A stretch of 48,823 nt of DNA from a bacterium (GCA_032250835.1 JAVVEA010000022.1:1-48823); one strand, 5' to 3'; positions 6,052 to 38,368 are shown, counted from the first letter of the stretch. Notes: generated by a model not told the origin, from the sequence alone. Program-made: numbers and translations.

Positions 6052-6097
6052 TCAGGTTAGCTGCGATAGGCCTGAACGCTCCTTGTTTAAGGTCTCA

Positions 6098-6158
6098 AAA
6101 ATTAGGGGACAGTTACCTAAATTTCGAAATCAAAAATCAGTATACTGTCACCTGATTT
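6098..6158. repeat. boundary motif copies 2 (+, ~6098-6123) and 3 (-, ~6133-6158), inverted pair
   Basis: AAATTAGGGGACAGTTACCTAAATT on +; AAATCAGGTGACAGTATACTGATTT on -; each is itself a short stem-loop. Confidence 0.85.
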
Positions 6159-6388: not shown

Positions 6389-6415
6389 AGCGGTTTTCGA
6401 ATCTAGGGATTTACG

Positions 6416-7783: not shown

Positions 7784-7824
7784 TATCATCTCCAGGGCTC
7801 TTTTACTAGGATTGTGACAAAATC

Positions 7825-7850
7825 AAAATCAGGTGACAGTTACCTATTTT
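7825..7850 (+). repeat. boundary motif copy 4
   Basis: AAAATCAGGTGACAGTTACCTATTTT. Confidence 0.85.
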
Positions 7851-8716
7851 TTCGCCCCTAAATCCCAAGAACTGGGATGTACGGCTCTTAGGTTCCCTTT
7901 TGCGAGCGGCTTAGAGCCCCTAGCCGCGCTAAGCAGCTCCGAAGCTAGGGAGTCGGCTTCGCCGACGGTTAACACAGCAACACTAGCAGTGCTCGCATCA
8001 CTACGCCCGCAGCCCCCTCTGCTCTTAGCTTTGAAAATTCTTGGGAGGATAGGGTCTTTTGATACCCCCATTGGTGAGACGCTTAGAGCCCCTAGCCAAG
8101 CATAGCGTTAAGAAAGCCAACTGTCTGACCTTCGAGCGCAGCGAGGGCGAGTTTTGGCTTTTAGCGTAGCTTGGCGTAGGGGGTCTTAGCGGTGAGCCTT
8201 TGGGGGCTGGTTTTTTTGCTTCTTTTCCATTGGGTGTTGGCTTCGCCAACTGTTTAGGCTACGCAACACTCGCTGGCTCGCGTCGTCACACACGTCGCCC
8301 TCGGCCTGCGGCCTCGAAGCTCCTTAGTGAGCCAAAAAAGAAGTCCCAACTCTCAATTTCTTCCAGCAATTTTGTGCCTCCCATTGGCCAGAAGGGAAGA
8401 GCCTTGCGAACCGAGGGATTCACGCCCTCAAGCGTCGCTGCGCTCACGGCACTCAGTAGGACGGGTTTTAGGCGGAAAGCCCCCGCAAGAGCCGGAACAG
8501 GACAAAGCGCTCTTGCGGGGAGGGGCGTGAGCCCCCTTGGGGAACCGGACCGGGGGGCGGCCTGAGTTGAAATCTTAAACCTGTGCGGCCAGAATTTGGT
8601 CCATCTCGCTGGCCAACAGGTCCAGGTGTTTTTTCTTCTCGTCGGCCATCCCCATAAAGAGTTTTTTGGAGTTCTCCTTGGTCGCTTGTTCCGAAAGGCG
8701 GGTATAAAAGTCATTG
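7851..8716. repeat. diverged, partly rearranged direct-repeat copy of ~9529-10358
   Basis: Shared blocks: GGTTCCCTTTTGCGAGCGGCTTAGAGCCCCTAGCCGCGCTAAGCAGCT; GGCTCGCGTCGTCACACACGTCGCCCTCGGCCTGCGGCCTCGAAGCTCCTTAGTG; AAGCCCCCGCAAGAGCCGGAACAGGACAAAGC... Confidence 0.85.
8575..8712 (-). pseudogene. 5'-truncated duplicate of the last 46 codons of the rhodanese-rubrerythrin gene
   Basis: Reads DFYTRLSEQATKENSKKLFMGMADEKKKHLDLLASEMDQILAAQV* versus intact DFYTRLSEQASKDDSKKLFMEMADEEKKHLGLLAGEMDQILAAQA* (10221-10358). Confidence 0.9.
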
Positions 8717-24466: not shown

Positions 24467-25045
24467 ATGAACCTTCGACCTAAAGTTGCGCTGGAAACCC
24501 TGGTGGAAGGGAACCAACGCTTTATTACCGACCAATCCAGACACCCGCACGAGTCCACCTTGACCCGTCGTGCCCTCTTGGACGGCCAAAACCCCATGGC
24601 CTGTATCCTCGGCTGTTCCGATTCGCGAGTTCCGCCCCAGCTGGTCTTTGACCAAGGCTTGGGCGATTTATTTATGGTGCGGGTCGCCGGGAACCTACTC
24701 GACGGGGTCACTTTAGGAAGTCTGGAATTTGCGGTGACGGTGCTTGGGGTGCCCTTGGTTTTGGTTTTGGGCCATGAAGACTGCGGTGCTGTCAAGGCGG
24801 CCATCGCCGTAAATCAGGGGGGAACGCCCAATTTACACCACCTGACCGACCGCATCCAGCCGATTTTAAAGCTCTGCAAAAACCCCAGCGACCTAGACGA
24901 AGCGGTGCGGACCAACGCCATCGAAGTGGCCCGCAGGCTACGCCAAGAAACGGTTTTTAGTGAGCGGATCGCCGACGGGTCATTGTTGGTAGTGGCTGCT
25001 TACTATGACTTGGCAACTGGCCACGTGGACATCTTAGAACGCTAG
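24467..25045 (+). CDS. beta-class carbonic anhydrase
   Basis: GNQRF, GCSDSRVPP, FDQGLGDLF.VRVAGN, GHEDCGAV. Confidence 0.95.
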   Translation: MNLRPKVALETLVEGNQRFITDQSRHPHESTLTRRALLDGQNPMACILGCSDSRVPPQLVFDQGLGDLFMVRVAGNLLDGVTLGSLEFAVTVLGVPLVLVLGHEDCGAVKAAIAVNQGGTPNLHHLTDRIQPILKLCKNPSDLDEAVRTNAIEVARRLRQETVFSERIADGSLLVVAAYYDLATGHVDILER

Positions 25046-27240
25046 TCTACCGCCTCGATCAGCTCTTTGATGAAGTCATAGACCTGAGACTGCCTTGAGG
25101 TCTGGTACTTGGCCAGGGTGCTGCCGGTGCCGATCTTGACAGCATAGCCACCCTCTTGGATCACCGAGAACATATCTTCATCGGTCCGGTCGTCGCCGAT
25201 GGCGATAGGTAGAACCTCTTCGCCTTGCTCGGCGATTTGGTGTAGGTACCAGCGGCAAAAATGCCCTTTGTCGGCTTCAATGCACCGCACTTCAATGTTC
25301 ATCTTCCCTTCAATCACCGTCACCGCTGATTTAGCCAAGGCCGCTTCCAACTCAAAGTGCAGCTTGATCGCCTGATAACGGGCAAAGTCTTTGGGCGAGT
25401 TGCGGTAGTGGAAGACCAGCGCATAATCCTTGCGCTCCACAAAGGAGTCAGGCACCCGGTTGGCGAAGTCGGTCATGAGGTTCAGGGCGTCGTCATACCA
25501 CCGCAAATCCGAAGTGACCAAAGAGTTCCAGGTGCGCTTTTGGTGGTCATAATACTTGGCCCCATGTTCACCGGCCATGTCGACCTTCAACCGCCCCAAT
25601 TGTTTTTCTAAAAAGTCACGGGGCCGCCCGCTGGTGATCACCAAGCGGACCTGCCGCTTTTTGGCCAATTGTTTGAGTAAATCCAATTCGTTGGCTTTCA
25701 AGATAGCGTCTTCGGGCCGGTTGCGGATCGTTACTAGGGTGCCGTCGTAGTCCATAAAGATCACCAGCGGCTTATTGCCGCGCAATGCGGCCAGCTTACG
25801 TACAAAGGCCTTGGGTTTTAAGACCTGACCGGTTAAATGGTCCTCTTCGGGTTGGGTCACATGATCCACGTAGCGCCTGAAGGTGGTGGCCCAATCGGTG
25901 GCGGTATAAGACTTGAGGAAGTCCAACATGGTATTCTGGCGGCGCCTGCGCTCAGCGAGGCCCATTTTCAGTGCCTCGGCGAGCCGGTGGGCGGTCTCAT
26001 CGATATTCCAGGGGTTGATGGGCATCACATGGCTTAAGGTGGAAATCGCCCCGGCGAACTCGCTCAGCAGGATATTGCCTGGATTATGCTTGTTTTGGGC
26101 GGCCACAAATTCCAAGCAAACCAAGTTCATCCCGTCACGCTTGCTGGTCACCAGTAGGGTATCGGCCAAGCGGTATAAGGCCAAAAGCTGGTGGTTGGGG
26201 ATGCTTGAATAGAGGTAGTGGATCGGGCTGTGGGCGATGTCGCCAAACTTACCGTTGATGGACCCTACCATTTCTTCTAAGCGACTTTTCAGCCCTTTAT
26301 ATTCAGGCACGTCGGTCCGGCTGGGTACGGCTATTTGGACCAACTGAACTTTACCGCGCAGTTTCGGGTAAAGCTCTAACATCCGCTCGAAGGCCTGGAA
26401 CTTGAGGTCGATTCCTTTGATGTAGTCTAAACGGTCCACGCCCAAAACCACTTGTTCTTCCACTAGGCCCTGTTGCAAGCGGGCTAACTCACCCTTGACC
26501 GGTGCCGCGTTGGATTTTTTTATGATTGAATGGGTGTCGATACTGACCGGGAAGACACCCAACTGGGCCTTGTGCCCCTCGTGGGTGATCGAATAGAGGT
26601 CTGTTTCGAGCCCTAAGGTCGAATAAACGCCCGAGGCGAAGTGCCGCAGGTAAGAATAGTCATGAAAGCCCACCACATCGGCGGCCAGGAGAGAGGTCAA
26701 GATCTCTTTGCGGGTCGGCAATTGGCGGAAGATTTCCGAGGTCGGGAAGGGGACATGTAAAAAGAAGCCGACCCGGAATTTCTTTTTCATTTGGCGCAAC
26801 ATGCCGGGCAGTAAAAAGAGGTGGAAGTCGTGGATCCACACCAAATCACCCGGTTCGGCGACCTTTAAGATTTCTTCAGCAAAGCGTCGGTTGACCTCCA
26901 CATAAGCGTCCCAGTTGCTTGCCAAGTGCCGCACCAGATTTGATTCATAATGCAGCAAGGGCCAGAGTACATCGTTGCAATAGCCGTTGTAGTAGGCATC
27001 AAATAGGTCTTCTTCGACCACTACGGGATGGTAAGATAGCGGATCGGAGCTGGGTTTCCGGACCGCTAAACCCTCGGCCAGTTCTTGACTGGCCGCGCCA
27101 ATCCAAAGCTTGCGGTTTTTTGTCTTGATTCCGTTGACCGCGGTGACCAACCCCCCCGAACTGGCCGTGATTTTGCCTTTTGCTGCGTCATATTGCAGGG
27201 GCAGTCGGTTGCTGACGATGATCCACTGGGCTGAGGACAT
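25042..27240 (-). CDS. otsAB: bifunctional trehalose-6-phosphate synthase/phosphatase
   Basis: VSNRLP, SSGGLV, WIHDFHL, FLHVPFP, DRLDYIKG, RDGMNLV; HAD domain DYDGTL, GDDRTDED; start at ATG 27240. Confidence 0.93.
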   Translation of the reverse strand: MSSAQWIIVSNRLPLQYDAAKGKITASSGGLVTAVNGIKTKNRKLWIGAASQELAEGLAVRKPSSDPLSYHPVVVEEDLFDAYYNGYCNDVLWPLLHYESNLVRHLASNWDAYVEVNRRFAEEILKVAEPGDLVWIHDFHLFLLPGMLRQMKKKFRVGFFLHVPFPTSEIFRQLPTRKEILTSLLAADVVGFHDYSYLRHFASGVYSTLGLETDLYSITHEGHKAQLGVFPVSIDTHSIIKKSNAAPVKGELARLQQGLVEEQVVLGVDRLDYIKGIDLKFQAFERMLELYPKLRGKVQLVQIAVPSRTDVPEYKGLKSRLEEMVGSINGKFGDIAHSPIHYLYSSIPNHQLLALYRLADTLLVTSKRDGMNLVCLEFVAAQNKHNPGNILLSEFAGAISTLSHVMPINPWNIDETAHRLAEALKMGLAERRRRQNTMLDFLKSYTATDWATTFRRYVDHVTQPEEDHLTGQVLKPKAFVRKLAALRGNKPLVIFMDYDGTLVTIRNRPEDAILKANELDLLKQLAKKRQVRLVITSGRPRDFLEKQLGRLKVDMAGEHGAKYYDHQKRTWNSLVTSDLRWYDDALNLMTDFANRVPDSFVERKDYALVFHYRNSPKDFARYQAIKLHFELEAALAKSAVTVIEGKMNIEVRCIEADKGHFCRWYLHQIAEQGEEVLPIAIGDDRTDEDMFSVIQEGGYAVKIGTGSTLAKYQTSRQSQVYDFIKELIEAVD

Positions 27241-27373
27241 AGGGTCTCTGGTATTTGCCGTTGTCGAGGTCAGGGTTAAAAAGCTTTGGCGTCCCACCAA
27301 CTTGCCAGGGTCCACCAAGGCGGTCTATGCTGATTATACTTCCTTAGGGCCATTGAAACACATCCGGGCAATA

Positions 27374-29158
27374 ATGACAAAGTTCCATCAGTATAATTTC
27401 GGCATCATCGGCAATTGTTCTTATTTGGCCTATATCAACCAGGAGGCGAACGTCGTCTGGCAATGCTGGCCGCGCTTTGACTCCAGCTTCATCTTCGGCG
27501 GACTGATGGATAAAGAAAAGGGCGGCTATTTTTATATCCGCCCGGCTAGCGAAAAGTATTACAGCCACCAATACTACTTGCCCAACACCAACATCTTGGT
27601 CACCGAGTTCCGCTGCAACGACGGAGCCTACCGGGTTTTGGATTTTGCCCCACGGTTTAAGTTATATGAACGCTGGTATAAGCCCTTGCTGCTGGTGCGT
27701 AAGGTAGAACTGCTTTCGGGCACGCCGAAGATCAAGGTCGGCTGCTCGCCCCGGGGTCGCTATGGGGAACTAATACCCAAACCGCTTCAGGGCAGCAACC
27801 ACATCGAATACCACAAGCTTGATGAGGCAGTGCGTCTGACCACCAACATCGCCAAGACACACATCATGGAAGAAGAGGCCTTCTGCCTGACCGAAACCAA
27901 ATATTTGGCCTTAAATTATGGCCAAAATTTTGAAGCCGCTTTGGAGGACACCTGCGAGGAGTTTTTGCGGAAAACTCAGCTCTATTGGCAAACCTGGGCA
28001 CAGCGCAGCGGTATTCCGGGGGTTTATCAAGACCAAGTGTTGCGCTCGGGCATGATCCTTAAATTGCACCAGTACGACGATACCGGTGCGATCATCGCCG
28101 CCGGTACCACCAGCCTGCCCGAATCACCGGGGTCGGGCCGCAATTGGGATTATCGTTATTGTTGGATCCGAGATAGCTACTATACCCTCGAAGCACTCAA
28201 CTTCATGGGCCACTTTACGGAGCTACAGCGCTACTCGCACTTTATCCAAAACATTGTGCAGGGCGAGATCAACGGGGTTCAGCCGATGTACAAGATCACC
28301 GGCCATGGGGCTATTGAAGAGCGGGAACTGGATCTGGAGGGGTATCTGGGCAACAACCGCCCGGTCCGTATCGGCAACGCCGCCTACCAGCAGGTTCAGT
28401 ATGATGTCTTTGGCCAGATATTGCTTTCCCTCTTGCCGCTGTATGTTGACAGTCGTTTCCAGCATGACCCGGCCCCGCCGACTTCGTTGGTGGAGCGCTT
28501 GTTGGGCAAAATCGATGAGGTGATGGACGAGCCGGACGCCGGGATTTGGGAATTTAGGGGGCTTAAGCGCAAGCATTGCCACACCTACCTGTTCCACTGG
28601 GCTGGTGCCAGGGCGGCCAAAAAAATTGGGCAAAAGTTCTTTAATCAAGAACTGGTAGCCCATGCCGAAAATTTAGAGGCCCGCTCTAGGCAGATGATCG
28701 AAAAATGCTGGCGGCCCGAAAAGGGGTTTTATGCCAGCACCATCGACGGGGACGATGCCGATGCCAGTGACCTGCTGCTGATCATCCTCAACTATCTTGA
28801 ATATGATTCGGACCGGGCCCGCAGCCATCTGCAATATTTAGAGCGGGAATTGTATGCAGGCGAAGGTTTGCTCTATCGCTACCGCCATGCCGACGATTTT
28901 GGCTCGCCGGAAAGCGCTTTTTTGGTTTGTAGCTTTTGGTATATTGAAGCGTTGGCCTGTGTGGGCCGGATTGATGACGCCATCAAGACCTTTGAAAAAG
29001 TCTTGGGCTACGCCAACGGGATGGGCATGTTCTCCGAAGACATCTGCCCCACCGACGGGAGCCAGTGGGGCAACTGTCCCCAAACATACAGCCATGTAGG
29101 GGTGATCAACGCCGCGTCCCGCATCGCCACCAGATTAGATCGGCCATTTTTCCATTAA
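27374..29158 (+). CDS. glycoside hydrolase family 15 (trehalase/glucoamylase-like)
   Basis: IIGNC, TTSLPE..G..RNWDYRYCWIRD, PVRIGN.AY.Q.Q.DVFG, GIWEFR, F.VCSFW, GN.PQTYSH; start ATG 27374. Confidence 0.93.
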   Translation: MTKFHQYNFGIIGNCSYLAYINQEANVVWQCWPRFDSSFIFGGLMDKEKGGYFYIRPASEKYYSHQYYLPNTNILVTEFRCNDGAYRVLDFAPRFKLYERWYKPLLLVRKVELLSGTPKIKVGCSPRGRYGELIPKPLQGSNHIEYHKLDEAVRLTTNIAKTHIMEEEAFCLTETKYLALNYGQNFEAALEDTCEEFLRKTQLYWQTWAQRSGIPGVYQDQVLRSGMILKLHQYDDTGAIIAAGTTSLPESPGSGRNWDYRYCWIRDSYYTLEALNFMGHFTELQRYSHFIQNIVQGEINGVQPMYKITGHGAIEERELDLEGYLGNNRPVRIGNAAYQQVQYDVFGQILLSLLPLYVDSRFQHDPAPPTSLVERLLGKIDEVMDEPDAGIWEFRGLKRKHCHTYLFHWAGARAAKKIGQKFFNQELVAHAENLEARSRQMIEKCWRPEKGFYASTIDGDDADASDLLLIILNYLEYDSDRARSHLQYLERELYAGEGLLYRYRHADDFGSPESAFLVCSFWYIEALACVGRIDDAIKTFEKVLGYANGMGMFSEDICPTDGSQWGNCPQTYSHVGVINAASRIATRLDRPFFH

Positions 29159-29260: not shown

Positions 29261-29503
29261 ATGGACTATCCTAAACTGAAACGTTTGGCGCTCAATGACG
29301 AGGGCTTTATTTTTGATCCGCTGACGGGCAATAGCTTTGTGGCCAATGCCACCGCCCAAGTAGCGTTGCAGGTCATACGCGAGGGCGGCGGCATCGCCGG
29401 GGCGGCGGCGAAAATTTGCCAAGACTTTGACGTGAGCCCTGAACAAGCCGAAGAAGATTTGCGCGAATTGCTGGCCCAATTGTCTTTAGAAAAGCTGGTC
29501 TGA
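29261..29503 (+). CDS. PqqD-family / RiPP recognition element (RRE) protein
   Basis: 80 aa; LA.NDEGFIFDP.TG.SF..N.TA...L..I......I...FDVS.EQA..DL..LL.QL....LV three-strand/three-helix pattern. Confidence 0.85.
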   Translation: MDYPKLKRLALNDEGFIFDPLTGNSFVANATAQVALQVIREGGGIAGAAAKICQDFDVSPEQAEEDLRELLAQLSLEKLV

Positions 29504-29505
29504 AG

Positions 29506-30543
29506 ATGGCTCGATTCACGCTGGCTGTGTCGGGCTTAAATGCCTCGGAAAACCCCGCTCCGGGCGTTGGCGTTGCCCGCAGCCTGTTAGAAGACCCAGA
29601 TTTAGATCTGCGGTTGGTCGGCTTGGTGTACGATGCCCTAGAGCCCGGTGCTTATCTGGACTGGTTATTCTCTAAAAGTTATTTGATGCCCTACCCCTCG
29701 GGCGGCAAAGACGCCTTCTTGAGCCGCTTGGCCCATCTGGCCCAGCGTGAATCGGTGGACTTCTGCCTGCCCACCCTAGACCTGGAAATCCCCCTTTACA
29801 TCCGCTACGCCGACGAAATCAAGGCCATGGGCCTTAAGACCTGGCTGCCCGAAATGGGCCCCTTTAAGGAACGGGGCAAAGACCAACTGCAACGTTTGGC
29901 CCAGGTGATGGGCCTTAAAGTCCCCCAGACCGAGATGGTCACGAGCCCCCAGGAACTAGAAGAAGCCTGTGAGAAGGAGGGCTTCCCTCTGCTGATCAAG
30001 GGGGCCTTTTATCAGGCCACCGAGGTTTGGACCATGCCCCAGGCCTTAGCGGCCTATCATTCGATTGTAGCGATCTGGGGCTATCCGGTTTTGGTGCAGG
30101 AGCGCATCGAAGGCGAGGAAGTCAATCTCGTTGGGGTCGGCGACGGGGAGGGCGGAAGCCTAGGTGAGGTGGCGATCAAGAAGATGTCGGTGACCAAAGA
30201 ACGCAAGATTTGGTCTGGCGTGACCATCCACCAACAAAGCCTCAGTGACGCATCAAGCGCTTTCCTGGGCCATTACCGCTGGCGCGGGGCCTATGAGATC
30301 GAATGTTTGGTGCGCGACGAGGCGCTGTATTTGATCGAGATCAACCCCCGTTTTCCAGCCTGGACCTACTTTGCCACCGGCGTAGGCGTCAACCTTCCGG
30401 CGCGGATGGTCAAAGCGGCCATGGGTATCGACCCCGGCCCGAATCCTAGCTACGCCCCCGGTAAGCTATTTATGCGCTATACCTACGAATGCATCAAAGA
30501 CCTTAAGGAATTCCAAAACCTGACCCTCCACGGCGAAACATGA
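29506..30543 (+). CDS. ATP-grasp ligase (CarB/PylC-like)
   Basis: N-terminal PAPG.GV.RSL; GFPLLIKG, VQERIEGEE, EIEC, IEINPRFPAW. Confidence 0.88.
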   Translation: MARFTLAVSGLNASENPAPGVGVARSLLEDPDLDLRLVGLVYDALEPGAYLDWLFSKSYLMPYPSGGKDAFLSRLAHLAQRESVDFCLPTLDLEIPLYIRYADEIKAMGLKTWLPEMGPFKERGKDQLQRLAQVMGLKVPQTEMVTSPQELEEACEKEGFPLLIKGAFYQATEVWTMPQALAAYHSIVAIWGYPVLVQERIEGEEVNLVGVGDGEGGSLGEVAIKKMSVTKERKIWSGVTIHQQSLSDASSAFLGHYRWRGAYEIECLVRDEALYLIEINPRFPAWTYFATGVGVNLPARMVKAAMGIDPGPNPSYAPGKLFMRYTYECIKDLKEFQNLTLHGET

Positions 30544-31892
30544 AAAAGGAGTACGAAAAGCCTCTGATCCAACGGCTCAAGACCGGCTTGCTCAATAAAT
30601 TTGGTGCCGCACCTTATTATAGCCGTAAGATCAGGAAAGACATCGACGGCGTCTTGATCCAAGATCTAGTGGAGCAATACGGCTCGCCGTTGTTTGTGTA
30701 CTCTGAGCGCCATATCCGCCAAGAGGTGCGCAGCCTAAAAGAACAGTTCGCCACCCGTTACCCCAAGGTGGAGTTGGCTTGGTCTTATAAAACCAACTAC
30801 CTTAAAGCGATTTGCGCGCTGATGCACCAAGAGGGGAGTCTGGCCGAGGTGGTTTCGGCCATGGAGTACGAAAAGGCCCGTGCCCTGGGCGTGCCCGGTA
30901 AGGACATCATCTTTAATGGCCCCCACAAATCCCGCGCCATCTTAAAGCGCGCCCTAGAAGATGGGGCCAAGATCCATCTGGACCACTTTGAAGAGTTGTT
31001 AGAGCTTGAATCGCTGGCTGATGAATTGGGCCTTCGCCCCCAGGTGGGCTTGCGGATCAATTTGGATTCGGGCATCTACCCCCAATGGTCCCGCTTTGGC
31101 TTTAACTTAGAATCAGGGCAGGCCTTTGAAGCCGCTCGGCGGATGCACGCCAAAGGCAAATTGACCCTGGATACGCTGCATTGCCATATCGGCACCTACA
31201 TCATGGAACCTAAGGCCTACGCTCAGTCGGCCGAAAAACTAGTGGCCTTGGCAAAGAAGCTGAAGGACGATCTGGGCTATCAGATCACCCGCCTAGACTT
31301 AGGCGGCGGATTCCCCTCTATGGGGCGTCTCAAGGGCCAATACCTGCCACCGGAAGTTTCCAACGCCAGCCTGGAAGGCTTCGCCGAGGCAATCTCAACG
31401 GCGCTCTACGCCAACCTTCCCCCCGGCGACCTACCTCAACTCTACTTAGAGTCGGGCCGGGCTTTGGTAGACGAAGCGGGCTTTTTAGTGACCAGTATCG
31501 TCGCCGCCAAACGTCTGCCGGACGGACGGCGCGCCTATGTGGCCGATGCGGGGATCAACCTGCTCTACACCTCCTTCTGGTACCGCTTTAACATTGAGTT
31601 GGAACGGGACATCAAAGGGGCCAACGAGCCCAGCGTGCTTTACGGCCCGCTGTGCATGAATATTGACGTGATCGACGAGGGGACCCAATTGCCGGGGCTC
31701 TCTAAAGGGGACCGGTTAATTCTCTCGCCGGTAGGGGCCTACAACCAAACCCAATCGCTCCAATTTATCGAATACCGGCCGAATGTGGTGCTGGTGCGTG
31801 AAAACGGGCAAGTGGATCTGATCCGCGAAGCCGAAACCCTTGAAGATATCGAGAGACGTGAATGTCTGCCAAAGGACCTGAAGCTTTCTTGA
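30540..31892 (+). CDS. PLP-dependent decarboxylase, Orn/DAP/Arg (fold III) family, LysA/BtrK-like
   Basis: GSPLFVY, WSYKTN (PLP Lys), HCHIGT, DLGGGF, ESGRALV, GPLCMNID, GAY; motifs diverge from housekeeping LysA. Confidence 0.88.
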   Translation: MKKEYEKPLIQRLKTGLLNKFGAAPYYSRKIRKDIDGVLIQDLVEQYGSPLFVYSERHIRQEVRSLKEQFATRYPKVELAWSYKTNYLKAICALMHQEGSLAEVVSAMEYEKARALGVPGKDIIFNGPHKSRAILKRALEDGAKIHLDHFEELLELESLADELGLRPQVGLRINLDSGIYPQWSRFGFNLESGQAFEAARRMHAKGKLTLDTLHCHIGTYIMEPKAYAQSAEKLVALAKKLKDDLGYQITRLDLGGGFPSMGRLKGQYLPPEVSNASLEGFAEAISTALYANLPPGDLPQLYLESGRALVDEAGFLVTSIVAAKRLPDGRRAYVADAGINLLYTSFWYRFNIELERDIKGANEPSVLYGPLCMNIDVIDEGTQLPGLSKGDRLILSPVGAYNQTQSLQFIEYRPNVVLVRENGQVDLIREAETLEDIERRECLPKDLKLS

Positions 31893-33940
31893 AAGAACAC
31901 GCCGGGGCCCTGCTCAATAGCTTTTCGGAGGTTTACTTCATCAACAGCCGGTTGGTGGGTTTGGCTTTCTTGTTACTGACCTTGGCCAATCCCCGGTTGG
32001 CTCTTGCCGGTTTGATTACCCTGGCGGCGGCCTATGGTTTCGCTAGGTTGGTCGGCCTGCGTGAAGAATTTTTGCAGTCCGGCTACTATACCTACAATCC
32101 GCTGCTAGTGGGTTTAGGTCTGGGCTCGGTTTATGGGGTTTCTTGGCTGAGTCTTTTGTTGTTGTTGCTCGCCGGGGTGATGACGCTGGTGGTGACCCTC
32201 GCCATGGCGCGGGTTTTTTATTGGTACCTTGGTCTGCCGATCTTGAGTCTGCCTTTTGTGGCGGTGATCTCGGCCATGACGCTCGCCAGCGGACATTATT
32301 CGAACCTCTTTGTGGCCAGCTTTTATCCCGCCCCGCACCTGCCCGAGTTGCCCCTGCCTTTATGGGCGTTGGGTTATTTTAGGTCTTTGGCGGCCATTTT
32401 GTTTTTGCCCCATTCCCTGCTGGGCTTGGGTTTGGCGGTGATCCTGCTGTTGGCTTCGCCGCTTTTGTTTGGTTTGTCCGTCGCCGGTTATTATACAGGC
32501 AGTCTGGTTTCGGCGGCGATGACCGGGTCTTGGGAAGGGGCTTTTTTAAACCTGAACCATTTTAATTATATCCTGATTGCTATGGGGATCGGCGGGGTTT
32601 TTCTAGTCGCTAGTCCGCGCAGCTTTCTGATTGCTATGTTGGCCGTGGCCAGTTCGGTGGTGTTGGTCGATGCGGTGATGGTCTTTTGGGCGACCTATGG
32701 TCTGCCGGTTTTGACGCTACCCTTTAACTTGGTGACTTTGGGTTTTGTCTATATTTTGCGGCTCTTGGGGAATCCCTTGGTGGCGCGGCGGGTGATGTCC
32801 GCGCCCGAAGCGACGCTAGATTATCACCTTTCGGTGACCAGCCGCTTTGACGATTGCCCCATCGCTTTGGCCCTGCCCTTTGCGGGCAGTTGGACCGTTT
32901 GGCAAGGCTTTTCGGGACCCTGGACCCACCAGGGCCCTTGGGCTAGGGCCTATGACTTTATTTTGACCGACGGCGAAGGGCAGTCTTTTCGGGGTGAAGG
33001 AGCCGAGACAAAGGATTATTTGGCTTGGGGTAAGCCCGTTTTGTCTCCCTTAAGTGGCCGGGTGGTGCGGGTGGTCAAACACCATGCGGACCAAAAGATT
33101 GGGCAGATAGACCAGCAGAATAGCTGGGGGAACTTAGTGATCATCCAGACCGAGGACGGTTGGCATGTGGAACTAAGCCACTTCCAAAAGGACAGCCTGC
33201 GCGTCGCCGAAGGAGATTGGGTGGAGCGCGGTAGCCTGCTGGGTCTTTGTGGCAATTCGGGGAACTCGCCTCAGCCTCATATCCACGTGCAGGTTCAAAT
33301 TGGCTCACGGATCGGGGAGTCTACCCTGGACTTCCGCTTTTCGGGTTATTTGGGCGCTGCGGGTTATGTCACCAAAGGATTGCCCGAGCCGGGCACCTGG
33401 GCCGAATCGCTGCCTCCGGCTCCGCCCGGGGTGGCCAGTTTCCCGCTAACCGAAAAGTTGGTCTTTAAGGCCATCCATGGCAAGGGCGAGCGGGGCTTGG
33501 TGACCTGGGAAGTGAAAATGGACGCCGAGGGGACCTACTATTTCGATAGCGGTAAAGGCCAATTGTATTTTGGCCGTATTGGCGACTGCCACTGCCACTA
33601 TACCTTGGTTGGTTCCGACCTTTCTTTAAAAACGCTTTTCTTGGCTTTGCCGCGTTGGCCGTTGACCGAGCGGCGGGAGCTAGAATTTTCGGAGTCCTTA
33701 CCTTTAGGGCTCCTTTACGGACCCATAATGCGGCGGGTATTGCTGCCTTTGGGGGCCTTTTATCATCAGCTGGGGCGTCCCTTCGGGCGTTACCGGCTAA
33801 AAAACGGGGAGATTCGGGGGACCGTTAGCAGCGGTTGGGGCAAAAAACAGGTAGATACCTGGGCTCAAATTGACTTGCAAAAGGGACTGCGGGGCTTTTC
33901 AGCAATGGAATGGACCTATATGAGGGTAGAGGATGAGTAA
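31889..33940 (+). CDS. urea-transporter-fold membrane domain fused to M23 metallopeptidase
   Basis: ~10 TM helices with duplicated YN..LVG / LP.L.LPF signatures; then H......YDF, WGN.VII, LSH, GNSGNSPQPHIH; start probably TTG 31889 overlapping the upstream TGA (ORF track: 31862). Confidence 0.85.
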   Translation: MKEHAGALLNSFSEVYFINSRLVGLAFLLLTLANPRLALAGLITLAAAYGFARLVGLREEFLQSGYYTYNPLLVGLGLGSVYGVSWLSLLLLLLAGVMTLVVTLAMARVFYWYLGLPILSLPFVAVISAMTLASGHYSNLFVASFYPAPHLPELPLPLWALGYFRSLAAILFLPHSLLGLGLAVILLLASPLLFGLSVAGYYTGSLVSAAMTGSWEGAFLNLNHFNYILIAMGIGGVFLVASPRSFLIAMLAVASSVVLVDAVMVFWATYGLPVLTLPFNLVTLGFVYILRLLGNPLVARRVMSAPEATLDYHLSVTSRFDDCPIALALPFAGSWTVWQGFSGPWTHQGPWARAYDFILTDGEGQSFRGEGAETKDYLAWGKPVLSPLSGRVVRVVKHHADQKIGQIDQQNSWGNLVIIQTEDGWHVELSHFQKDSLRVAEGDWVERGSLLGLCGNSGNSPQPHIHVQVQIGSRIGESTLDFRFSGYLGAAGYVTKGLPEPGTWAESLPPAPPGVASFPLTEKLVFKAIHGKGERGLVTWEVKMDAEGTYYFDSGKGQLYFGRIGDCHCHYTLVGSDLSLKTLFLALPRWPLTERRELEFSESLPLGLLYGPIMRRVLLPLGAFYHQLGRPFGRYRLKNGEIRGTVSSGWGKKQVDTWAQIDLQKGLRGFSAMEWTYMRVEDE

Positions 33941-34874
33941 GAAGACGTTGGTATTAGTTTTAGTTAGCTTGTTGGCCAGCGTTCCGGCCTGGGCCTACGA
34001 GCGCCCTTCGGGTGCGGTTTTATCGGCAGGGCAGACGGGGTTTAACGCTGAGGCCAGCCGCGATTCGATGTCCCAGGTTGCGGTTTATGCCTCCACTCCG
34101 ATGGATTTAGCCTTTACCTGGGAGTTCGCCGCAGACCAAACCAAGGTGACCTTTAAAGACGCCGATACCGATGCGGTACAAGAAACCAGCGGTACCATCG
34201 CATTGGGTTATGCAGGGTTTAACCACTCCTTTGCGCTGGGCTACCACGGGATCAGCAGCACCTCTGATTACAACAAAGGTGCCAGCGGCGTGGCCTTTGA
34301 TTATCTGTATTACGAAGGCTTTAACTGGTCAGCGGGATTGCATTACGGGCGTTCCAATTACCCTAACTTTATTGTTGATTATCAAGAAGTCACCACCACC
34401 ACGAGAAGCGCCCCCATCCCCGGTCAACCGCCCACACAGACGACGACCACGACCTACGAAGAGGTTACGGGTTTAACCATTAACCAAGTGGGCCTGACGG
34501 CTTCGAAGTCTTTAGGGCTTTATTTCGGACTAGACCTAGGATTAGACCAAATCATGATCAGCCCGGCGATCTACGGCCAAAAGGCCACCTCCTTTTCTTC
34601 GGCTTCCGCCGGGCTTCGTGCTTATTGGAGCACCTTTGCCTTTAACCTCAGCACCTACAGCGGAAAGCGTTTTGGTTACCTAGGGGCGCATGCCTTAGCG
34701 ATGTACAGCAACACCAACATCTACCAAAGCGGCGTTGCCTTCTCGACCCGCTGGACCATGGGGCCCAGCAGTGCCTTGACCGTAGCTTACAACCAGGATA
34801 ACTATCTAGAGTCTGAGTCTGGTCCGACGATGACCGGTTCGGGCCTTTCTGTAGCCCTTGGTTTGAGCTTCTAA
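33933..34874 (+). CDS. putative outer-membrane beta-barrel protein
   Basis: Signal peptide (AWA), alternating aromatic/Gly strands, C-terminal VALGLSF. Confidence 0.7.
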   Translation: MSKKTLVLVLVSLLASVPAWAYERPSGAVLSAGQTGFNAEASRDSMSQVAVYASTPMDLAFTWEFAADQTKVTFKDADTDAVQETSGTIALGYAGFNHSFALGYHGISSTSDYNKGASGVAFDYLYYEGFNWSAGLHYGRSNYPNFIVDYQEVTTTTRSAPIPGQPPTQTTTTTYEEVTGLTINQVGLTASKSLGLYFGLDLGLDQIMISPAIYGQKATSFSSASAGLRAYWSTFAFNLSTYSGKRFGYLGAHALAMYSNTNIYQSGVAFSTRWTMGPSSALTVAYNQDNYLESESGPTMTGSGLSVALGLSF

Positions 34875-35503
34875 TGCGAAAGTTGTTGGTCCTTTTTGTG
34901 TTGTTACTTTGGGCAGCGCCCTTGTGGGCGCAGAACGAAGTAGCTGAGGCCTACCAGAGGTCTTACGCGCTGGAATCGGCGCAGGACTATCCGCGTGCCG
35001 CTGCGGCGTTGATCCCCCTGTGGGAGGTGCATCCCCAAGGGTACACGCTCAACCTGCGGCTTGGATGGCTCTATTACCTACAAAACAAACAGGCCAACGC
35101 GATCGAGCATTATACCCGAGCAGTCCAAGCCTATCCTCTCTCGTTAGAGGCTCGGCTTGGATTGTCTTTACCTTATCTGGCCCAGCGGCGCTGGAGCGAG
35201 GCCGAACAAATCCTGACCGATGTGCTCAAGCGGGACCATTACAATTTTTATGGGAATCTCTACTTGGCGCGGGTGTACCGCTTTGAAGGCAAGTTGGAGT
35301 TGGCCGAAACTTTGCTGATGCAGACCCTGTATCTTTACCCCACCAATAGCCAACTGTTGCTTGAATGGGGCGAGGTATTAACGGCCCAAAACAAGGTTGA
35401 ACAGGGGCGTCAGGTGTTGGCGGACCTGTTGGTCTTAGACCCAGAAAACCTCCGGGCCAAGGCCTTGCTGAAAGTTTTAGCGGTTGCTGAACGGCATGAG
35501 TGA
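34874..35503 (+). CDS. exported TPR-repeat protein
   Basis: Signal peptide (LWA-Q); TPR helices e.g. LRLGWLYY....A...Y..A....P. Confidence 0.85.
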   Translation: MRKLLVLFVLLLWAAPLWAQNEVAEAYQRSYALESAQDYPRAAAALIPLWEVHPQGYTLNLRLGWLYYLQNKQANAIEHYTRAVQAYPLSLEARLGLSLPYLAQRRWSEAEQILTDVLKRDHYNFYGNLYLARVYRFEGKLELAETLLMQTLYLYPTNSQLLLEWGEVLTAQNKVEQGRQVLADLLVLDPENLRAKALLKVLAVAERHE

Positions 35504-36386
35504 CTACCGAGGTCGCTTCGCCCCCACACCGAGCGGCCCCTTGCATTTCGGCAGTTTGGTCGGGGCCTTAGGCAGTTATTTGGCCGCTAAGTCCCAATCG
35601 GGCGCTTGGCTCCTCCGCATAGATGACCTAGACGGGCCCCGGGTGGTCAAAGGGGCGATTGATCAGATATTGCGCCGCCTCGAGGCCTTTGGGCTGTTTT
35701 GGGACGAGTCGGTCCGTTACCAAAGCCAAAGATACCCAGAATACCAAGCCGCCCTAGACCAATTGATCGAGCGGGGCTTGGCCTATCCCTGCCATTGTTC
35801 GCGCAGCCAGTTGGGCCAAAGCTCCCAGGCGGGAATCGAAGGGCCTGTTTATCCGGGCACCTGCCGCCTGACCCCTGGGGCCGGGGAGCTTCGGTCCTAC
35901 CGCCTCTTGACCCAAGGGGCTCCCTTGGTGTTTGAAGACGGCAACCTAGGGGTCCAGCGCCTGGATTTAGCCGCCCAGGTGGGCGACTTTGTTTTGTGGC
36001 GCGCCGACGGGGTTTTTTCTTACCACCTAGCGACGGTGGTGGATGAGCAGTTAGATGGCATCACCGAACTGGTGCGCGGTGCGGACCTGTTGGTTTCGAC
36101 CCAACGGCATTTGTTTCTGATGGACCTATTGCGTCAGCCACGTCCGCGTTGCCTGCACCTTCCGGTGGCGCTGGATGCTCAAGGAGAAAAGCTGAGCAAA
36201 CAGACCCTAGCTCCTCCATTAGAGCCGGGCCAAGAGGGGCGGTTGCTTTTTTTAGCGCTGGAATTTTTGGGCCAATTCCCGCCTGAAGATATGCGCGGTG
36301 CCCCACCGGCTGAACTGCTCGCCTGGGGCGTGGCTCATTGGATGCCCCAAGCGCTGGGCGGTCAAGCAACGCGCTTAGCCCCTTAG
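35496..36386 (+). CDS. gluQ: glutamyl-Q tRNA(Asp) synthetase
   Basis: GRFAPTPSGPLHFGSL, RIDDLD, CHCSR..YPGTC Zn site, VRGADLL, KLSKQ; no anticodon-binding domain. Confidence 0.92.
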   Translation: MSDYRGRFAPTPSGPLHFGSLVGALGSYLAAKSQSGAWLLRIDDLDGPRVVKGAIDQILRRLEAFGLFWDESVRYQSQRYPEYQAALDQLIERGLAYPCHCSRSQLGQSSQAGIEGPVYPGTCRLTPGAGELRSYRLLTQGAPLVFEDGNLGVQRLDLAAQVGDFVLWRADGVFSYHLATVVDEQLDGITELVRGADLLVSTQRHLFLMDLLRQPRPRCLHLPVALDAQGEKLSKQTLAPPLEPGQEGRLLFLALEFLGQFPPEDMRGAPPAELLAWGVAHWMPQALGGQATRLAP

Positions 36387-38368
36387 GGGAGGTAGGCGAT
36401 CCGGTTGCGGCCCTGGTCTTTGGCTTGGTAAAGTGCGCGGTCGGCCCGCGCTAAGAGGTCTTCCAGGCTTTCTGAGTTGTCGCGCAGCCCGGAAATCCCG
36501 ATACTGACGGTCAGGGGGACGGGCTCTTCTCGGTCGGATTGTAGGCTCAGGGACTCAACCTGGGCACGGATCCTTTCGGCGACAATGTCCGCGCCGCTGC
36601 TCGGTGTTTCCGGCAAGATCACCCCAAACTCTTCGCCGCCCAACCGGCCCATAAAGTCCATGGAACGCAGGTGTCCGTTGACGGCCTGCACAAAGGCGAC
36701 AATCGCTTGGTCCCCTTGCTGGTGCCCGAAGCGGTCGTTGATGTGCTTGAAGTGGTCTAAATCCATCATCAATACCGACAAATGCCGCCCAAAGCGTAGA
36801 TTGCGTTGCAACTCTCGTTTGGCTTGCTCTAAAAAGTGACCACGGTTAAAACAGCCGGTCAGGGCGTCGGTCGTTGCTTGGAGGTGGAGCTTTTCGGTTA
36901 GTTCCACCCGCTGGGTGATGTCCACCAAGCCGGTGAGCATCATGGGTTTGCCCTCAAATTGGATCGGGCAAGAAGACAGATTGGTCCAGAAAACCCGCCC
37001 CGAAGGATTGATCACCTTTACTTGCATATCTTTCACCAACCCCTTCAGCTTGAGTTCTTCGGCGAAGCGGAGGCGGTCTTCGGGGTTGCCGTAAAACTCG
37101 TTGGCCGAGCGGCCCACCGGATTGATCCGGGCGTCTTTAAGGAACAGTTCTCGGGCCTTGAGGTTGATCTGACGGATCACCGCGCCCTGGGTCTCGGTCA
37201 GCATCATGGGCACCGGAGCCATCTCGAACAACTGTAGGTAGCGCTCTTTGGAGGCCTCTAACTCTTCCTGGGCGGCACAACGCGCCCTGACTTCTTTACG
37301 CAGGTTGAAGTTCAGCCGCCCCACCCACGCCGCAATGCCCGCAACCAGCAGCGCCAAGGCCCCGACCCAGGCTAGGCTGGTAAAGGCCCAGCGGTAGTCC
37401 TTTTTCTCCGGGTGATACAAGAAGCCCTCTAGGTCGATGGGGCCCGATAGGTTAAAACTCGCTTGATAGGTTTCCCCGATTTTCTGCCACCGTTTTTCGC
37501 TCATGTGCCCCAGTTCCACCATGTCGGGGAGGATCAACTCGCGCATGGCCTGGGCTTCATAGCGCAGGTGGTCTAGCGACTTTTCGGGGGCGTAGTGTTG
37601 GTGGATCTGTTGGACCATCTCTTCGGGGTGGTCTAGCGCGTATTGCCAACCCTTTAGGGACGCTCGCCGGAAAGAGGCGACCCGTTCGGGGTGTTGGTTC
37701 AATTCCTCCTCGGAGGTGAAGAGCACGTCGGTATAGTAGTCGATCCCATATTGGCGCGGGCTGATCGCTCGCCAGGGGATGCCTTGTTGCTGTAGGTAGT
37801 ATGGCTCGTTGGTGCTGTAGGCATGGAAGGCGTCTACTTTGCCTTCAATCAAGTCCTCAATCCGATAACTCATGGGGCGGATGTCCAGCTTTTGCGGATC
37901 GATCCCCTCTTGCGCCAAGGTGGCCCAGAGCTCTAGGCTTTCTGTTTTAGGTAACATCATCAACCGCTTGCCCACCAAGTCATGCAGGTTGCGGATACCT
38001 GAGTCAGCGCGCACCAGCCAGATGGAAGGGGCTGTTTGAAAAAGCGCCGCTATCGCCACCACCGGTTTCCCCTGCATCCGCAATAGCAAGATCCCCGCAT
38101 CGCCGACGGCATAGTCAGCCAAGCCGGAGACCAAAATATCCGAAGCTATGCCTAGTTTTTGGCTGGCAGCCCGGATTTCCACGTCTAACCCTTCGGCGGC
38201 ATAATAACCTTGCTTCTGGGCGGCGTAATATCCGGCGAATTGGAACTGGTGCAGCCAGTGTAACTGAAGCACCAGCTTTTCTTTGGGCACCTCGGCCTGC
38301 AAGGGACCCAAGCTACCCAGCAAACAGCCGAGGGCTAAACAAAATTTGCCAAATAGTTGCTTTTTCAA
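36383..38368 (-). CDS. diguanylate cyclase (NMT1/THI5-like periplasmic domain, TM, PAS, GGDEF)
   Basis: LQL.W.HQFQFAGYYAA..GYY...GLDVEI; TDALTG..NR, DLDHFK.IND.FGH..GD, RxxD I-site, GGEEF. Confidence 0.93.
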   Translation of the reverse strand: MKKQLFGKFCLALGCLLGSLGPLQAEVPKEKLVLQLHWLHQFQFAGYYAAQKQGYYAAEGLDVEIRAASQKLGIASDILVSGLADYAVGDAGILLLRMQGKPVVAIAALFQTAPSIWLVRADSGIRNLHDLVGKRLMMLPKTESLELWATLAQEGIDPQKLDIRPMSYRIEDLIEGKVDAFHAYSTNEPYYLQQQGIPWRAISPRQYGIDYYTDVLFTSEEELNQHPERVASFRRASLKGWQYALDHPEEMVQQIHQHYAPEKSLDHLRYEAQAMRELILPDMVELGHMSEKRWQKIGETYQASFNLSGPIDLEGFLYHPEKKDYRWAFTSLAWVGALALLVAGIAAWVGRLNFNLRKEVRARCAAQEELEASKERYLQLFEMAPVPMMLTETQGAVIRQINLKARELFLKDARINPVGRSANEFYGNPEDRLRFAEELKLKGLVKDMQVKVINPSGRVFWTNLSSCPIQFEGKPMMLTGLVDITQRVELTEKLHLQATTDALTGCFNRGHFLEQAKRELQRNLRFGRHLSVLMMDLDHFKHINDRFGHQQGDQAIVAFVQAVNGHLRSMDFMGRLGGEEFGVILPETPSSGADIVAERIRAQVESLSLQSDREEPVPLTVSIGISGLRDNSESLEDLLARADRALYQAKDQGRNRIAYLP

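Follow-up and report, generated by a model that had tools for sequence, protein, structure and literature searches.

The stretch of DNA analysed here, which we call the window, comes from a bacterium and is 48,823 nucleotides long (GCA_032250835.1 JAVVEA010000022.1:1-48823). Between positions 29261 and 35503 it contains six open reading frames on the + strand, all at the coordinates given in the initial annotation of the sequence. That annotation described six co-oriented genes that are separated by gaps of 2 nt or overlap each other, and the ORF coordinates bear this out: the 2-nt gap between genes 1 and 2 is followed by overlaps of 4, 31, 8 and 1 nt up to gene 6. The six tightly packed genes are a real operon. 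Promoter and terminator scans gave signals no higher than those of shuffled sequence, and Rfam showed no RNA family near the operon. Gene 6 is overlapped by 20 nt by gene 7 (35484..36386, + strand), which encodes GluQRS, a tRNA glutamyl-Q34 synthetase (NCBIfam NF004314, 346.7 bits, over the cut-off). Among the best 80 related loci, no other than the closest relative (L001) has GluQRS after the cassette, and gene 7 is probably a passenger outside the cassette.

Starting from a single protein, the search for related loci gave no matches, and an alignment-based search was needed. There were 304 pattern matches in a genome collection in which each species is represented once, and 258 of these encode a relative of the gene 4 protein, a fusion of a urea-transporter-fold channel and an M23 zinc peptidase (UT::M23). 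They belong to Aquificota, Gemmatimonadota, Verrucomicrobiota, Planctomycetota, Calditrichota, the giant sulfur bacteria and others. The best 80 of the 258 relatives were kept for the comparison of loci, and 57 of these loci have at least 2.9 kb of upstream flank. The order PqqD, ATP-grasp, decarboxylase, UT::M23 is kept in 50 of these 57 loci, so the co-occurrence of the genes in other phyla, mentioned in the initial annotation, is confirmed, and the linkage of the cassette genes is far beyond chance. Two of the other seven loci are partial and five have no PqqD, ATP-grasp or decarboxylase gene nearby; three of these five genomes carry a cassette-type decarboxylase on a different contig (58-61% identity), and the remaining two have the variant decarboxylase/ATP-grasp pair that is described below. 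The cassette is patchy, with a full-length UT::M23 in 4 of 40 relatives, and is therefore accessory; the patchiness does not indicate a function.

Gene 1 (29261..29503, + strand, 80 aa) encodes a stand-alone PqqD-type recognition protein (RRE). It matches Pfam PqqD with 36.4 bits (cut-off 23.4), and the genome has no second PqqD match; the NCBIfam model lasso_PqqD_Strm gives an E value of 1.1e-10, which is under the cut-off of the model. A profile built from 20 orthologues has the B1 proteins of lasso peptide systems as top matches, namely TfuB1 (6jx3, E 9e-11) and TbiB1 (5v1u, E 2.5e-9). The initial annotation saw no precursor peptide in the operon, and we arrived at the same result: in 54 loci, the stretch of 600 nt that precedes gene 1 contains 205 small ORFs in all, none of which is shared beyond close relatives, and the junctions within the operon are too tight for a precursor gene.

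The "missing" peptide is most likely the N-terminal tail of the decarboxylase encoded by gene 3. Its residues 2-13 (30543..30578, + strand) form a putative docking tail with the motif Y5-x-x-P8-x-I10, recognised by motif and complex model. The pattern Y..P.[ILVFM] was found in 54 of 57 complete decarboxylase N-termini and W..P.I in the other three; it is the same motif as the YxxPxL of lasso leaders, as given in the part of PMC6784204 available to us. In a three-chain complex model the PqqD protein and the tail reached an ipSAE of 0.76, while the best of three controls reached 0.02. Of 80 solved complexes, 58 attain the ipSAE mark used, as do 2 of 110 mismatched pairs; this calibration is only roughly valid here because we used our own alignments and three chains. 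Separate runs share at least 69% of contacts, with a partner pLDDT of at least 82; the confident PqqD contacts are with decarboxylase residues 2-13 only, and the modelled contact is a strand addition. Potentially, the pass may reflect a memory of the solved lasso B1-leader complexes in the model. When the decarboxylase was replaced, the PqqD protein and the ATP-grasp enzyme were not confidently placed against each other (0.02), which is no support either way. Thus, the RRE of the initial annotation is present, but PqqD is modelled on the decarboxylase tail and most likely does not deliver a free peptide. The lasso B1 proteins remain the nearest known relatives, with the same YxxPx[L/I] motif and the same kind of strand addition, here modelled; in the cassette, however, a 450-aa enzyme provides the "leader" as its own N-terminus, in place of a short precursor. 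No lasso B2 leader protease or cyclase was found among the seven operon proteins of this locus (Pfam, NCBIfam, E up to 0.01).

Gene 2 (29506..30543, + strand, 345 aa) encodes an ATP-grasp ligase of the branch that resembles carbamoyl-phosphate synthase (CPS). The Pfam ATP-grasp scores are under their cut-offs, and so are the NCBIfam PRK12767-type CPS-like models, with an E value of 1.7e-19. A search with the single sequence found no informative solved relative; the profile has 2pn1 as top solved match (E 7e-15), an entry titled "Carbamoylphosphate synthase large subunit" and nothing more, followed by the CPS large chain. The mean column identity over 18 orthologues is 70%, and the residues E278, N280 and R282 of the ExNPR motif are invariant.

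Gene 3 (30540..31892, + strand, 450 aa) encodes a PLP decarboxylase with the alanine-racemase fold (Orn_Arg_deC_N, 119 bits) that is similar to FigC/FslC. Its top solved match is the N-citrylornithine decarboxylase 7kh2 with 200.9 bits, compared to 136 for DAP decarboxylase and about 81 for BtrK. Across phyla the mean column identity is 74%, and C372-M373-N374-I375-D376 as well as T344, W347 and Y348 are invariant. The Met after the catalytic Cys is the same as in FigC, and the specificity helix with T344/W347/Y348 lacks both the Asp found in ODC/ADC and the Arg found in DAPDC. We mapped the FigC residues through an alignment and the part of PMC7857480 available to us, and found that the citrate contacts H357 and R387 correspond to I375 and Q405 in gene 3. 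These contacts are replaced, and therefore the substrate probably carries a neutral group instead of citrate at its far end.

The initial annotation considered that gene 3 might be the only lysA of the genome. This is not the case, since gene 3 scores 222.6 bits against the lysA model, under the cut-off of 297.9, and a true lysA with 357.3 bits is found on another contig (C22). For these reasons we rejected gene 3 as a DAP decarboxylase; the residues for the far carboxylate and amine of DAP are also replaced. In the genome, which is 97% complete, we found no other decarboxylase of this fold, no pyruvoyl ADC, no agmatinase and no OKR-type decarboxylase over the cut-off, while spermidine-synthase-like genes and one group-II decarboxylase are present. 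We therefore stop short of calling the cassette the diamine source that fills a polyamine gap.

Gene 4 (31862-33940, + strand) encodes the UT::M23 fusion protein of 692 aa, with UT and Peptidase_M23 in one chain; in the part of PMC12998343 available to us this fusion appears solely as a domain architecture. Residues about 16-300 (31907..32761, + strand) form the UT-fold channel domain (Pfam UT, 194 bits), and the model superposes on the Desulfovibrio urea transporter 3k3f with a Z score of 34.9 and an rmsd of 2.8 A over 313 residues. We compared it with the eight-position urea recognition motif and its Q-T-T-Q relay, as described in the part of PMC11589576 available to us. At Y78, S129, F234, T285 and V24/I179 the motif is retained or changed conservatively, and the two LPxxS/TLPF stretches are retained together with the aromatic residues of the pore. 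On the other hand, the pore glutamines are replaced by E23 at the inner and A178 at the outer position. Among 75 sequences, the inner position is E in 64, D in 5, G in 3, R in 1 and a gap in 2, and the outer position is A in 58, S in 12, T in 3, C in 1, G in 1 and never Q; the first T of the relay is S in 74 of the 75. The ten-helix fold is thus shared with the urea transporters dvUT, UT-A and UT-B, but "urea transporter" here denotes a fold and not a function, because the glutamines of the urea relay are missing, judged by a published motif that may not hold for bacterial urea channels such as dvUT. The transporter half of the fusion in the initial annotation stands only in this sense.

The M23 zinc-peptidase domain (residues about 333-519, 32858..33418, + strand) matches Pfam Peptidase_M23 with 49.3 bits (cut-off 28.7) and has structural matches at Z 12-14 to Csd1-Csd2 (5j1l), LytM and lysostaphin. 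H356, D365, H440, H473 and H475 are invariant in all 75 sequences; the spacing between H356 and D365 is 9 residues, compared to 4 in the usual HxxxD. In the chain, it comes after the tenth UT helix. Lysines and arginines are found in the N-terminal segment (K4, K11) and past the last UT helix (R300, R310, R311, R329), and there are none in the loop between the repeats (144-166). From this distribution and the ten helices we predict that both ends of the protein, and hence the M23 domain, are probably cytoplasmic. Cleavage of peptidoglycan in place, as implied in the initial annotation, is therefore unlikely. A C-terminal beta-rich domain (residues about 521-692, 33422..33940, + strand) belongs to no family and has no Pfam match up to E 10; within the model of the 692 residues it weakly resembles the lipid-binding beta shells of vitellogenin/apoB and the putative lipoprotein 4fvs (Z 9.0-9.1). 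The same domain also follows M23 in UT-less proteins of 316 aa (Atlas cluster, 122 members).

The last two genes probably encode envelope proteins, as the initial annotation held. Gene 5 (33933..34874, + strand, 313 aa) has a signal peptide-like start and no family match, and AlphaFold2 predicts an outer-membrane beta-barrel with 14 strands (pLDDT 91.2, pTM 0.81). Its best overall Foldseek match is OmpG (2iwv, TM 0.63/0.70, rmsd 4.9 A), with FadL and TodX also high, and jackhmmer shows it to be homologous with the gene at the same position in 37 other loci. Gene 6 (34874..35503, + strand, 209 aa) encodes a TPR protein (TPR_19, TPR_16 and other TPR families) with a signal-peptide-like N-terminal segment, which is thus predicted to be secreted. 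Of the 64 loci with enough flank, 53 encode a relative no more than 2.5 kb downstream of the UT::M23 gene.

In eight loci (L084-L091) we see a variant form, in which UT::M23, an optional barrel and the TPR gene are followed by three genes; L036 and L038 represent two of the same contigs a second time, cut differently. The variant decarboxylase is of the fold-I Orn/Lys/Arg type (OKR_DC_1, E 1e-70), the variant ATP-grasp enzyme is unrelated to gene 2 (NF005096, 536-539 bits), and the third gene, found in 7 of the 8 loci, is a PF03417 amidase/acyltransferase. None of the eight loci has PqqD, and the cassette-type decarboxylase is absent from the variant genomes (best 26-28% identity). With two non-homologous decarboxylase/ATP-grasp pairs on one envelope unit, the variant form suggests that this unit serves one chemistry, that is, an ATP-dependent amide bond and the decarboxylation of a basic amino acid. 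According to the part of PMC7857480 available to us, rhizoferrin biosynthesis has both ligate-then-decarboxylate and decarboxylate-then-ligate routes, and the same acyl-diamine is possible by either. The two forms of the cassette, however, need not share a product, because the variant has the extra PF03417 gene and no PqqD. Among 59 loci that have the variant pair away from UT, 44 also have a carbon-nitrogen hydrolase, 35 a class-III aminotransferase and 25 an aldehyde dehydrogenase.

Our tentative proposal, which may well turn out to be wrong, is that the cassette makes a mono-acylated diamine-type amide that is released at the channel. In the cytoplasm, the ATP-grasp enzyme would join a carboxylic acid to the side chain of an amino acid via an amide, and the FigC-like decarboxylase would then strip the alpha-carboxyl, leaving a product whose two ends would be a neutral amide and a free amine. 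PqqD would clamp the lasso-leader-like tail of the decarboxylase and thus fix this enzyme in the assembly. The product, or a precursor trimmed by the M23 domain acting as a cytoplasmic zinc amidase, would be freed at the inner mouth of the UT pore, which would have been retuned from urea by the change of the inner glutamine to glutamate and of the outer one to a small residue. From there it would pass the periplasm and the outer membrane via the TPR protein and the OmpG-like barrel. In this scheme, we infer the substrates, the order of the steps, the transport direction, the product and what M23 does, and this last point is the least secure. A UT pore is narrow and may not let an acyl-diamine pass, and the pore of gene 4 might carry a by-product or nothing.

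Several known systems resemble parts of this scheme. In FigA/FigC (FslA/FslC) of rhizoferrin synthesis in Francisella and in SbnH of staphyloferrin B synthesis, a side-chain amide is likewise made by a ligase and then decarboxylated by an enzyme with the alanine-racemase fold. Their ligase, however, is an NIS synthetase and not an ATP-grasp enzyme, the cassette has no MFS exporter and no sign of a link to iron, and PqqD, UT::M23, barrel and TPR protein are without counterpart there. In the butirosin pathway, BtrI/BtrJ/BtrK, an ATP-grasp enzyme and a decarboxylase of the same fold act on a tethered amino acid, and the initial annotation drew on BtrJ/BtrK. The idea of an amide or amine made by a ligase and a decarboxylase fits the FigC-like site and the variant loci, but the analogy itself has to be revised: BtrK is a weaker match than FigC/FslC, no phosphopantetheine carrier protein family was matched among the operon proteins, and the small protein of the cassette is a PqqD fold that would sit on the tail of an enzyme. 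In the Puu gamma-glutamylation of putrescine, an ATP-dependent ligase masks one amine of the diamine and a hydrolase later unmasks it. The sister module of the variant, with its aminotransferase, aldehyde dehydrogenase and hydrolases, presumably has a similar outline, a likeness of domain content only, as the enzyme families differ.

A different role for the tail is conceivable but unlikely, namely that it is itself the substrate or scaffold of the chemistry. PqqD would present the stretch behind the YxxPxI motif, with N19, K20 and G22, and the ATP-grasp enzyme would load an amino acid on K20 or staple the tail; the decarboxylase would edit the loaded residue, and M23 would cut off the product or the tail. 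Leader-bound RREs steer enzymes to the adjoining residues in RiPP systems, the peptidase lies in the same operon, and no precursor gene was found upstream of gene 1. In addition, 20 orthologues spread over many phyla all keep G16, N19, K20, G22 and Y27, and these residues precede the part of the decarboxylase that can be aligned to lysA and FigC. On the other hand, these residues could just pack on the enzyme and there is no sign of a modification, gene 2 is of the CPS/PurD branch and not of a solved peptide-modifying type, and the variant loci seem to do the task without PqqD and with a decarboxylase of another fold. A more specific version, which we consider rather improbable, is that the ATP-grasp enzyme loads the tail at K20, the decarboxylase edits its own tail or that of its dimer partner, and M23 releases the amide into the pore. 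Such a route would be similar to the LysW or peptide-scaffold pathways, but without a separate scaffold gene; if true, a scaffold-based synthesis of small molecules would be joined to a dedicated route through both membranes.

The flow could also be inward, with barrel, TPR protein and UT pore importing a small amide that M23 hydrolyses at the cytoplasmic end of the pore, and with ligase and decarboxylase processing the pieces. UT channels are passive and bidirectional, OmpG-like barrels are uptake pores, and the neighbours of the variant pair away from UT look catabolic. We nevertheless regard uptake as improbable, as ligases that consume ATP and decarboxylases adapted to conjugated amino acids are typical of synthesis, and there is no conserved regulator or catabolic partner beside the main form. 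Although characterised M23 enzymes cleave peptidoglycan cross-links, LysA-type enzymes act on DAP, and barrel and TPR protein are in the envelope, a role in the cell wall, in which M23 would cut peptidoglycan peptides while ligase and decarboxylase remodel the stem peptide or its precursor (e.g. at the free D-centre of DAP), is very unlikely, given the predicted location of M23 inside the cell, the replaced DAP residues in gene 3 and a UT pore that a muropeptide could not pass.

The preferred reading, an acylated diamine released at the channel, would have consequences beyond this locus. Relatives of UT::M23 occur in 258 places and in many phyla, and the literature searched gives no product, phenotype or name for them; neither the operon nor the variant module was found to be described in it, and no characterised pathway was matched, in agreement with the initial annotation. 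Three elements, each of them unusual, meet in the cassette: a recognition protein from antibiotic-peptide pathways that, according to the complex model, would hold an enzyme via a built-in leader, a urea-channel fold without the urea relay, and a cell-wall-type zinc peptidase predicted to lie inside the cell. If the product is indeed a released small acyl-diamine, it would represent a new and common class of bacterial metabolites or signals with its own export path. Some carriers are in culture: proteins of cultured Persephonella and Hydrogenothermus strains are among the relatives, and the variant is carried by cultured Shewanella surugensis DSM 17177.

The ORF check places six co-oriented genes at 29261..35503 on the plus strand, exactly where the initial annotation had put them, with one gap of 2 nt followed by overlaps of 4, 31, 8 and 1 nt. 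The products are, in order, a PqqD protein (Pfam, 36.4 bits), an ATP-grasp enzyme of the carbamoyl-phosphate-synthase-like branch (Pfam and NCBIfam), an Orn/DAP/Arg-type PLP decarboxylase (119 bits), a urea transporter (UT) domain (194 bits) and an M23 domain (49.3 bits) within a single protein (UT::M23), a protein of 313 aa without a family, and a TPR protein (Pfam/NCBIfam). The GluQRS gene (35484-36386, TTG start) overlaps the TPR gene by 20 nt; of the best 80 of 258 loci, it adjoins the cassette only in the closest relative, L001.

To find related loci, we searched a collection with one genome per species using an alignment of 16 UT::M23 proteins. The 304 pattern matches included 258 relatives, of which the best 80 loci were retained. 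These come from Aquificota, Gemmatimonadota, Verrucomicrobiota, Planctomycetota, Calditrichota, Nitrospinia, Cloacimonadota, WOR-3 and others, and include relatives of Thiomargarita and Beggiatoa; the nearest among these 80 of 258 lies in a Candidatus Lambdaproteobacteria genome (56% identity). Neighbourhoods of the 80 loci were compared by tblastn with the window proteins, scoring the upstream side in the 57 loci with at least 2.9 kb of flank and the downstream side in the 64 with at least 2.3 kb. The order PqqD, ATP-grasp, decarboxylase, UT::M23 was found in 50 of these 57 loci, which bears out the expectation that the genes co-occur in other genomes. Two loci (L043, L059) have a partial upstream set, and in five (L004, L005, L036, L038, L044) all three upstream genes are absent nearby; the genomes of L004, L005 and L044 hold a full-length cassette-type decarboxylase on a different contig (58-61% identity). 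A TPR relative lies at most 2.5 kb downstream of UT::M23 in 53 of 64 loci and not in the other 11. In one planctomycetal locus (L048) the set is rearranged on one strand, with UT::M23, barrel and TPR followed by PqqD, ATP-grasp and decarboxylase. Since only 4 of 40 relatives of the window genome (same family up to same class) have a full-length UT::M23, the cassette is accessory and patchy, yet very widespread.

The fifth product is modelled as a 14-strand barrel (pLDDT 91.2, pTM 0.81), with OmpG as the best structural match (TM 0.63/0.70, rmsd 4.9 A) and FadL and TodX also ranking high. Owing to its fast divergence, tblastn detects it only in L001 among the best 80 of 258 loci. UT::M23 is followed by the TPR gene in 49 of the 80, and in 37 of these 49 the two are separated by an ORF of 250 aa or more; all 37 were recovered by jackhmmer from the window protein. 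Both the barrel and the TPR protein begin with signal-peptide-like segments.

The best solved relative of the decarboxylase is FigC/FslC, the N-citrylornithine decarboxylase of the rhizoferrin route (7kh2, 200.9 bits), compared with 136 bits for DAP decarboxylase and about 81 bits for BtrK. That it is not the sole lysA of the genome was confirmed: the true lysA, on contig C22, scores 357.3 bits against 222 for the cassette enzyme (cut-off 297.9). Through the FigC alignment we located in the enzyme the positions treated in section 8 of PMC7857480. At these positions, a Met follows the catalytic Cys, as in FigC, the specificity helix carries T344, W347 and Y348 without the Asp of ODC/ADC or the Arg of DAPDC, and the FigC citrate contacts H357 and R387 are replaced by I375 and Q405. 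The Met, T344, W347, Y348, I375 and Q405 are invariant in the orthologue alignment. By these residues, the substrate is probably an amino acid with a masked, neutral far end rather than a conjugate of citrate. The ATP-grasp enzyme is far from all solved enzymes in a single-sequence search; its profile comes nearest to 2pn1 (title only "Carbamoylphosphate synthase large subunit") and next to the CPS large chain.

As for other polyamine genes, the window genome has the spermidine-synthase family at three loci (four matches) and one group-II decarboxylase on contig C8. Across the whole genome we were not able to find any alanine-racemase-fold decarboxylase besides lysA and the cassette enzyme, an OKR-type decarboxylase over the cut-off, a pyruvoyl arginine decarboxylase or an agmatinase.

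The strongest evidence for the business of the UT::M23 unit comes from a variant of the locus. In L036 and L038, UT::M23, an optional barrel and TPR are followed by a fold-I Orn/Lys/Arg decarboxylase (865-912 aa, OKR_DC_1 E 1e-70, LdcC-like) and an ATP-grasp enzyme of another family (509-529 aa), which matches NF005096 at 536-539 bits, under its cut-off of 684, and shares almost nothing with the cassette's ATP-grasp. PqqD is absent from both loci, and the cassette-type decarboxylase was not found in the two variant genomes tested (best 26-28% identity). A search with the variant ATP-grasp gave 59 loci: UT::M23 and TPR stand directly upstream in eight (L084-L091, including Shewanella and Moraxellaceae), a fold-I decarboxylase adjoins it in 49, and a PF03417 (AAT/C45) gene follows it in 51. 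A decarboxylase and an ATP-grasp ligase thus serve the same envelope unit in two unrelated pairings, one in the main and one in the variant loci, and it is this that argues most strongly that the unit deals with an ATP-made amide and the decarboxylation of a basic amino acid. Ligate-first and decarboxylate-first orders can converge on one acyl-diamine, as in the two rhizoferrin routes (PMC7857480).

Outside the UT context, the variant ATP-grasp occurs with a carbon-nitrogen hydrolase (44/59), a class-III aminotransferase (35/59) and an aldehyde dehydrogenase (25/59). In L092-L142 we see a second module that combines these three with a large Orn/Lys/Arg-type fold-I decarboxylase, the NF005096-type ATP-grasp and the AAT/C45 protein of PF03417 (for example L119:3400-12458, L126:4834-12445 and L142:3269-12457). 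It is widespread in Myxococcota, Planctomycetota, Gemmatimonadota, Acidobacteriota and Proteobacteria and looks like a masked-diamine pathway; we found no description of it in the literature searched.

The initial annotation had seen no precursor peptide, and this stands: among 205 small ORFs upstream of the PqqD gene in 54 loci, none was kept beyond close relatives. About 31 residues of the decarboxylase precede the part that can be aligned to lysA and FigC, and within this stretch Y5, P8, G16, N19, K20, G22 and Y27 are invariant in 20 orthologues. After removal of four of 61 sequences (L034, L039, L040, L061; N-terminus or anchor pattern missing), the N-terminal tail reads Y..P.[ILVFM] in 54 of 57 and W..P.I in three. 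The best profile matches of PqqD are the lasso B1 proteins TfuB1 and TbiB1, and the leaders that these bind carry a YxxPxL motif, according to the excerpted text of PMC6784204. In a three-chain model of the full decarboxylase, the ATP-grasp enzyme and PqqD as scored partner, PqqD reached an ipSAE of 0.76, compared with 0.02 for the best of three controls. Of 80 solved complexes 58 attain this mark, as do 2 of 110 mismatched pairs; the calibration is only rough here because of the self-made alignments and the three chains. The runs share at least 69% of contacts with a partner pLDDT of at least 82, and the confident modelled interface joins decarboxylase residues 2-13 to PqqD residues 17, 24-32, 35-36, 52, 54-58, 66-67, 69-70, 73-74 and 77. 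The model lends support to tail binding by PqqD; since solved B1-leader complexes exist, resemblance to them may explain its pass. The same tail figures in another reading, in which it is itself the scaffold or the substrate, and which we consider unlikely.

The AlphaFold2 model of UT::M23 (pLDDT 85.8) matches urea transporters with Z 35 and M23 domains with Z 12-14, and residues 521-692 weakly resemble lipid-binding beta shells (Z about 9). We aligned the eight positions of the urea recognition motif, as given in the excerpted text of PMC11589576, through human UT-A2 and tallied them over 75 family members. The aromatic and hydroxyl positions are retained (Y78, S129, F234, T285); the inner glutamine position of this reference is Glu in 64 sequences, Asp in five, Gly in three, Arg in one and a gap in two, and the outer one is Gln in 0 of 75. 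Lys and Arg precede the first helix and follow the last, and the loop joining the repeats lacks both; from this placement both ends, and hence the M23 and C-terminal domains, should lie inside the cell. Five positions of M23, each His or Asp, are invariant (75/75), with a spacing from the first His to the Asp of nine residues, not four. M23 and the same C-terminal beta domain also occur together without UT, in 122 proteins of one Atlas cluster (316 aa, mostly Pseudomonadota), a free-standing form of the putatively cytoplasmic half.

Our best reading, held tentatively and at somewhat less than an even chance, is acyl-diamine synthesis in a PqqD-held assembly with M23 release at the UT pore and a path outward. 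The ligase and decarboxylase would make a mono-acylated diamine-type amide, and PqqD would grip the leader-like tail and so hold the decarboxylase within the assembly. At the mouth of a UT pore retuned by its acidic residue, a cytoplasmic M23 amidase would trim or free the product; the TPR protein and barrel would finish the outward path. That the cassette imports and degrades a small amide seems to us improbable, and that it remodels the cell wall more so: the M23 domain, unlike that of a wall hydrolase, is predicted to lie inside the cell. What probability remains beyond these four readings we leave to some explanation that we have not thought of.

The cassette misses at least one defining feature of each family considered. 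At this locus it is without the precursor gene, B2 protease and cyclase of a lasso-type RiPP pathway, without the NIS synthetase and citrate contacts of FigA/FigC, and without the carrier protein of BtrI/J/K; its decarboxylase scores under the lysA cut-off, and its UT domain, in the human UT-A2 alignment of the motif as excerpted, has lost the glutamine relay of urea channels. It is most like a "ligate, then decarboxylate" step of the FigA/FigC type combined with a lasso-type docking device. No characterised pathway matching it was found in the literature searched, as had been expected, and in our judgement the system is of a type without prior description. The excerpted text of PMC12998343 gives UT plus M23 as a bacterial domain architecture and mentions neither function nor neighbours.

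Upstream of the cassette, at 25042-29158, the minus strand encodes a bifunctional trehalose-6-phosphate synthase/phosphatase and the plus strand a GH15 trehalase-like protein. For the GH15 gene, the longest ORF (TTG at 27110) runs about 200 nt into the synthase gene, which makes a later true start probable. Convergent with the operon end, a minus-strand gene (36383-38368) encodes an NMT1/THI5-like binding, PAS and GGDEF diguanylate cyclase protein. Among the best 80 of 258 loci, none of the trehalose, GH15 and GGDEF genes recurs beside related cassettes. Elsewhere in the window, 6001-8000 has a G+C of 0.44, compared with 0.51-0.61 in adjoining stretches, and may be foreign DNA.
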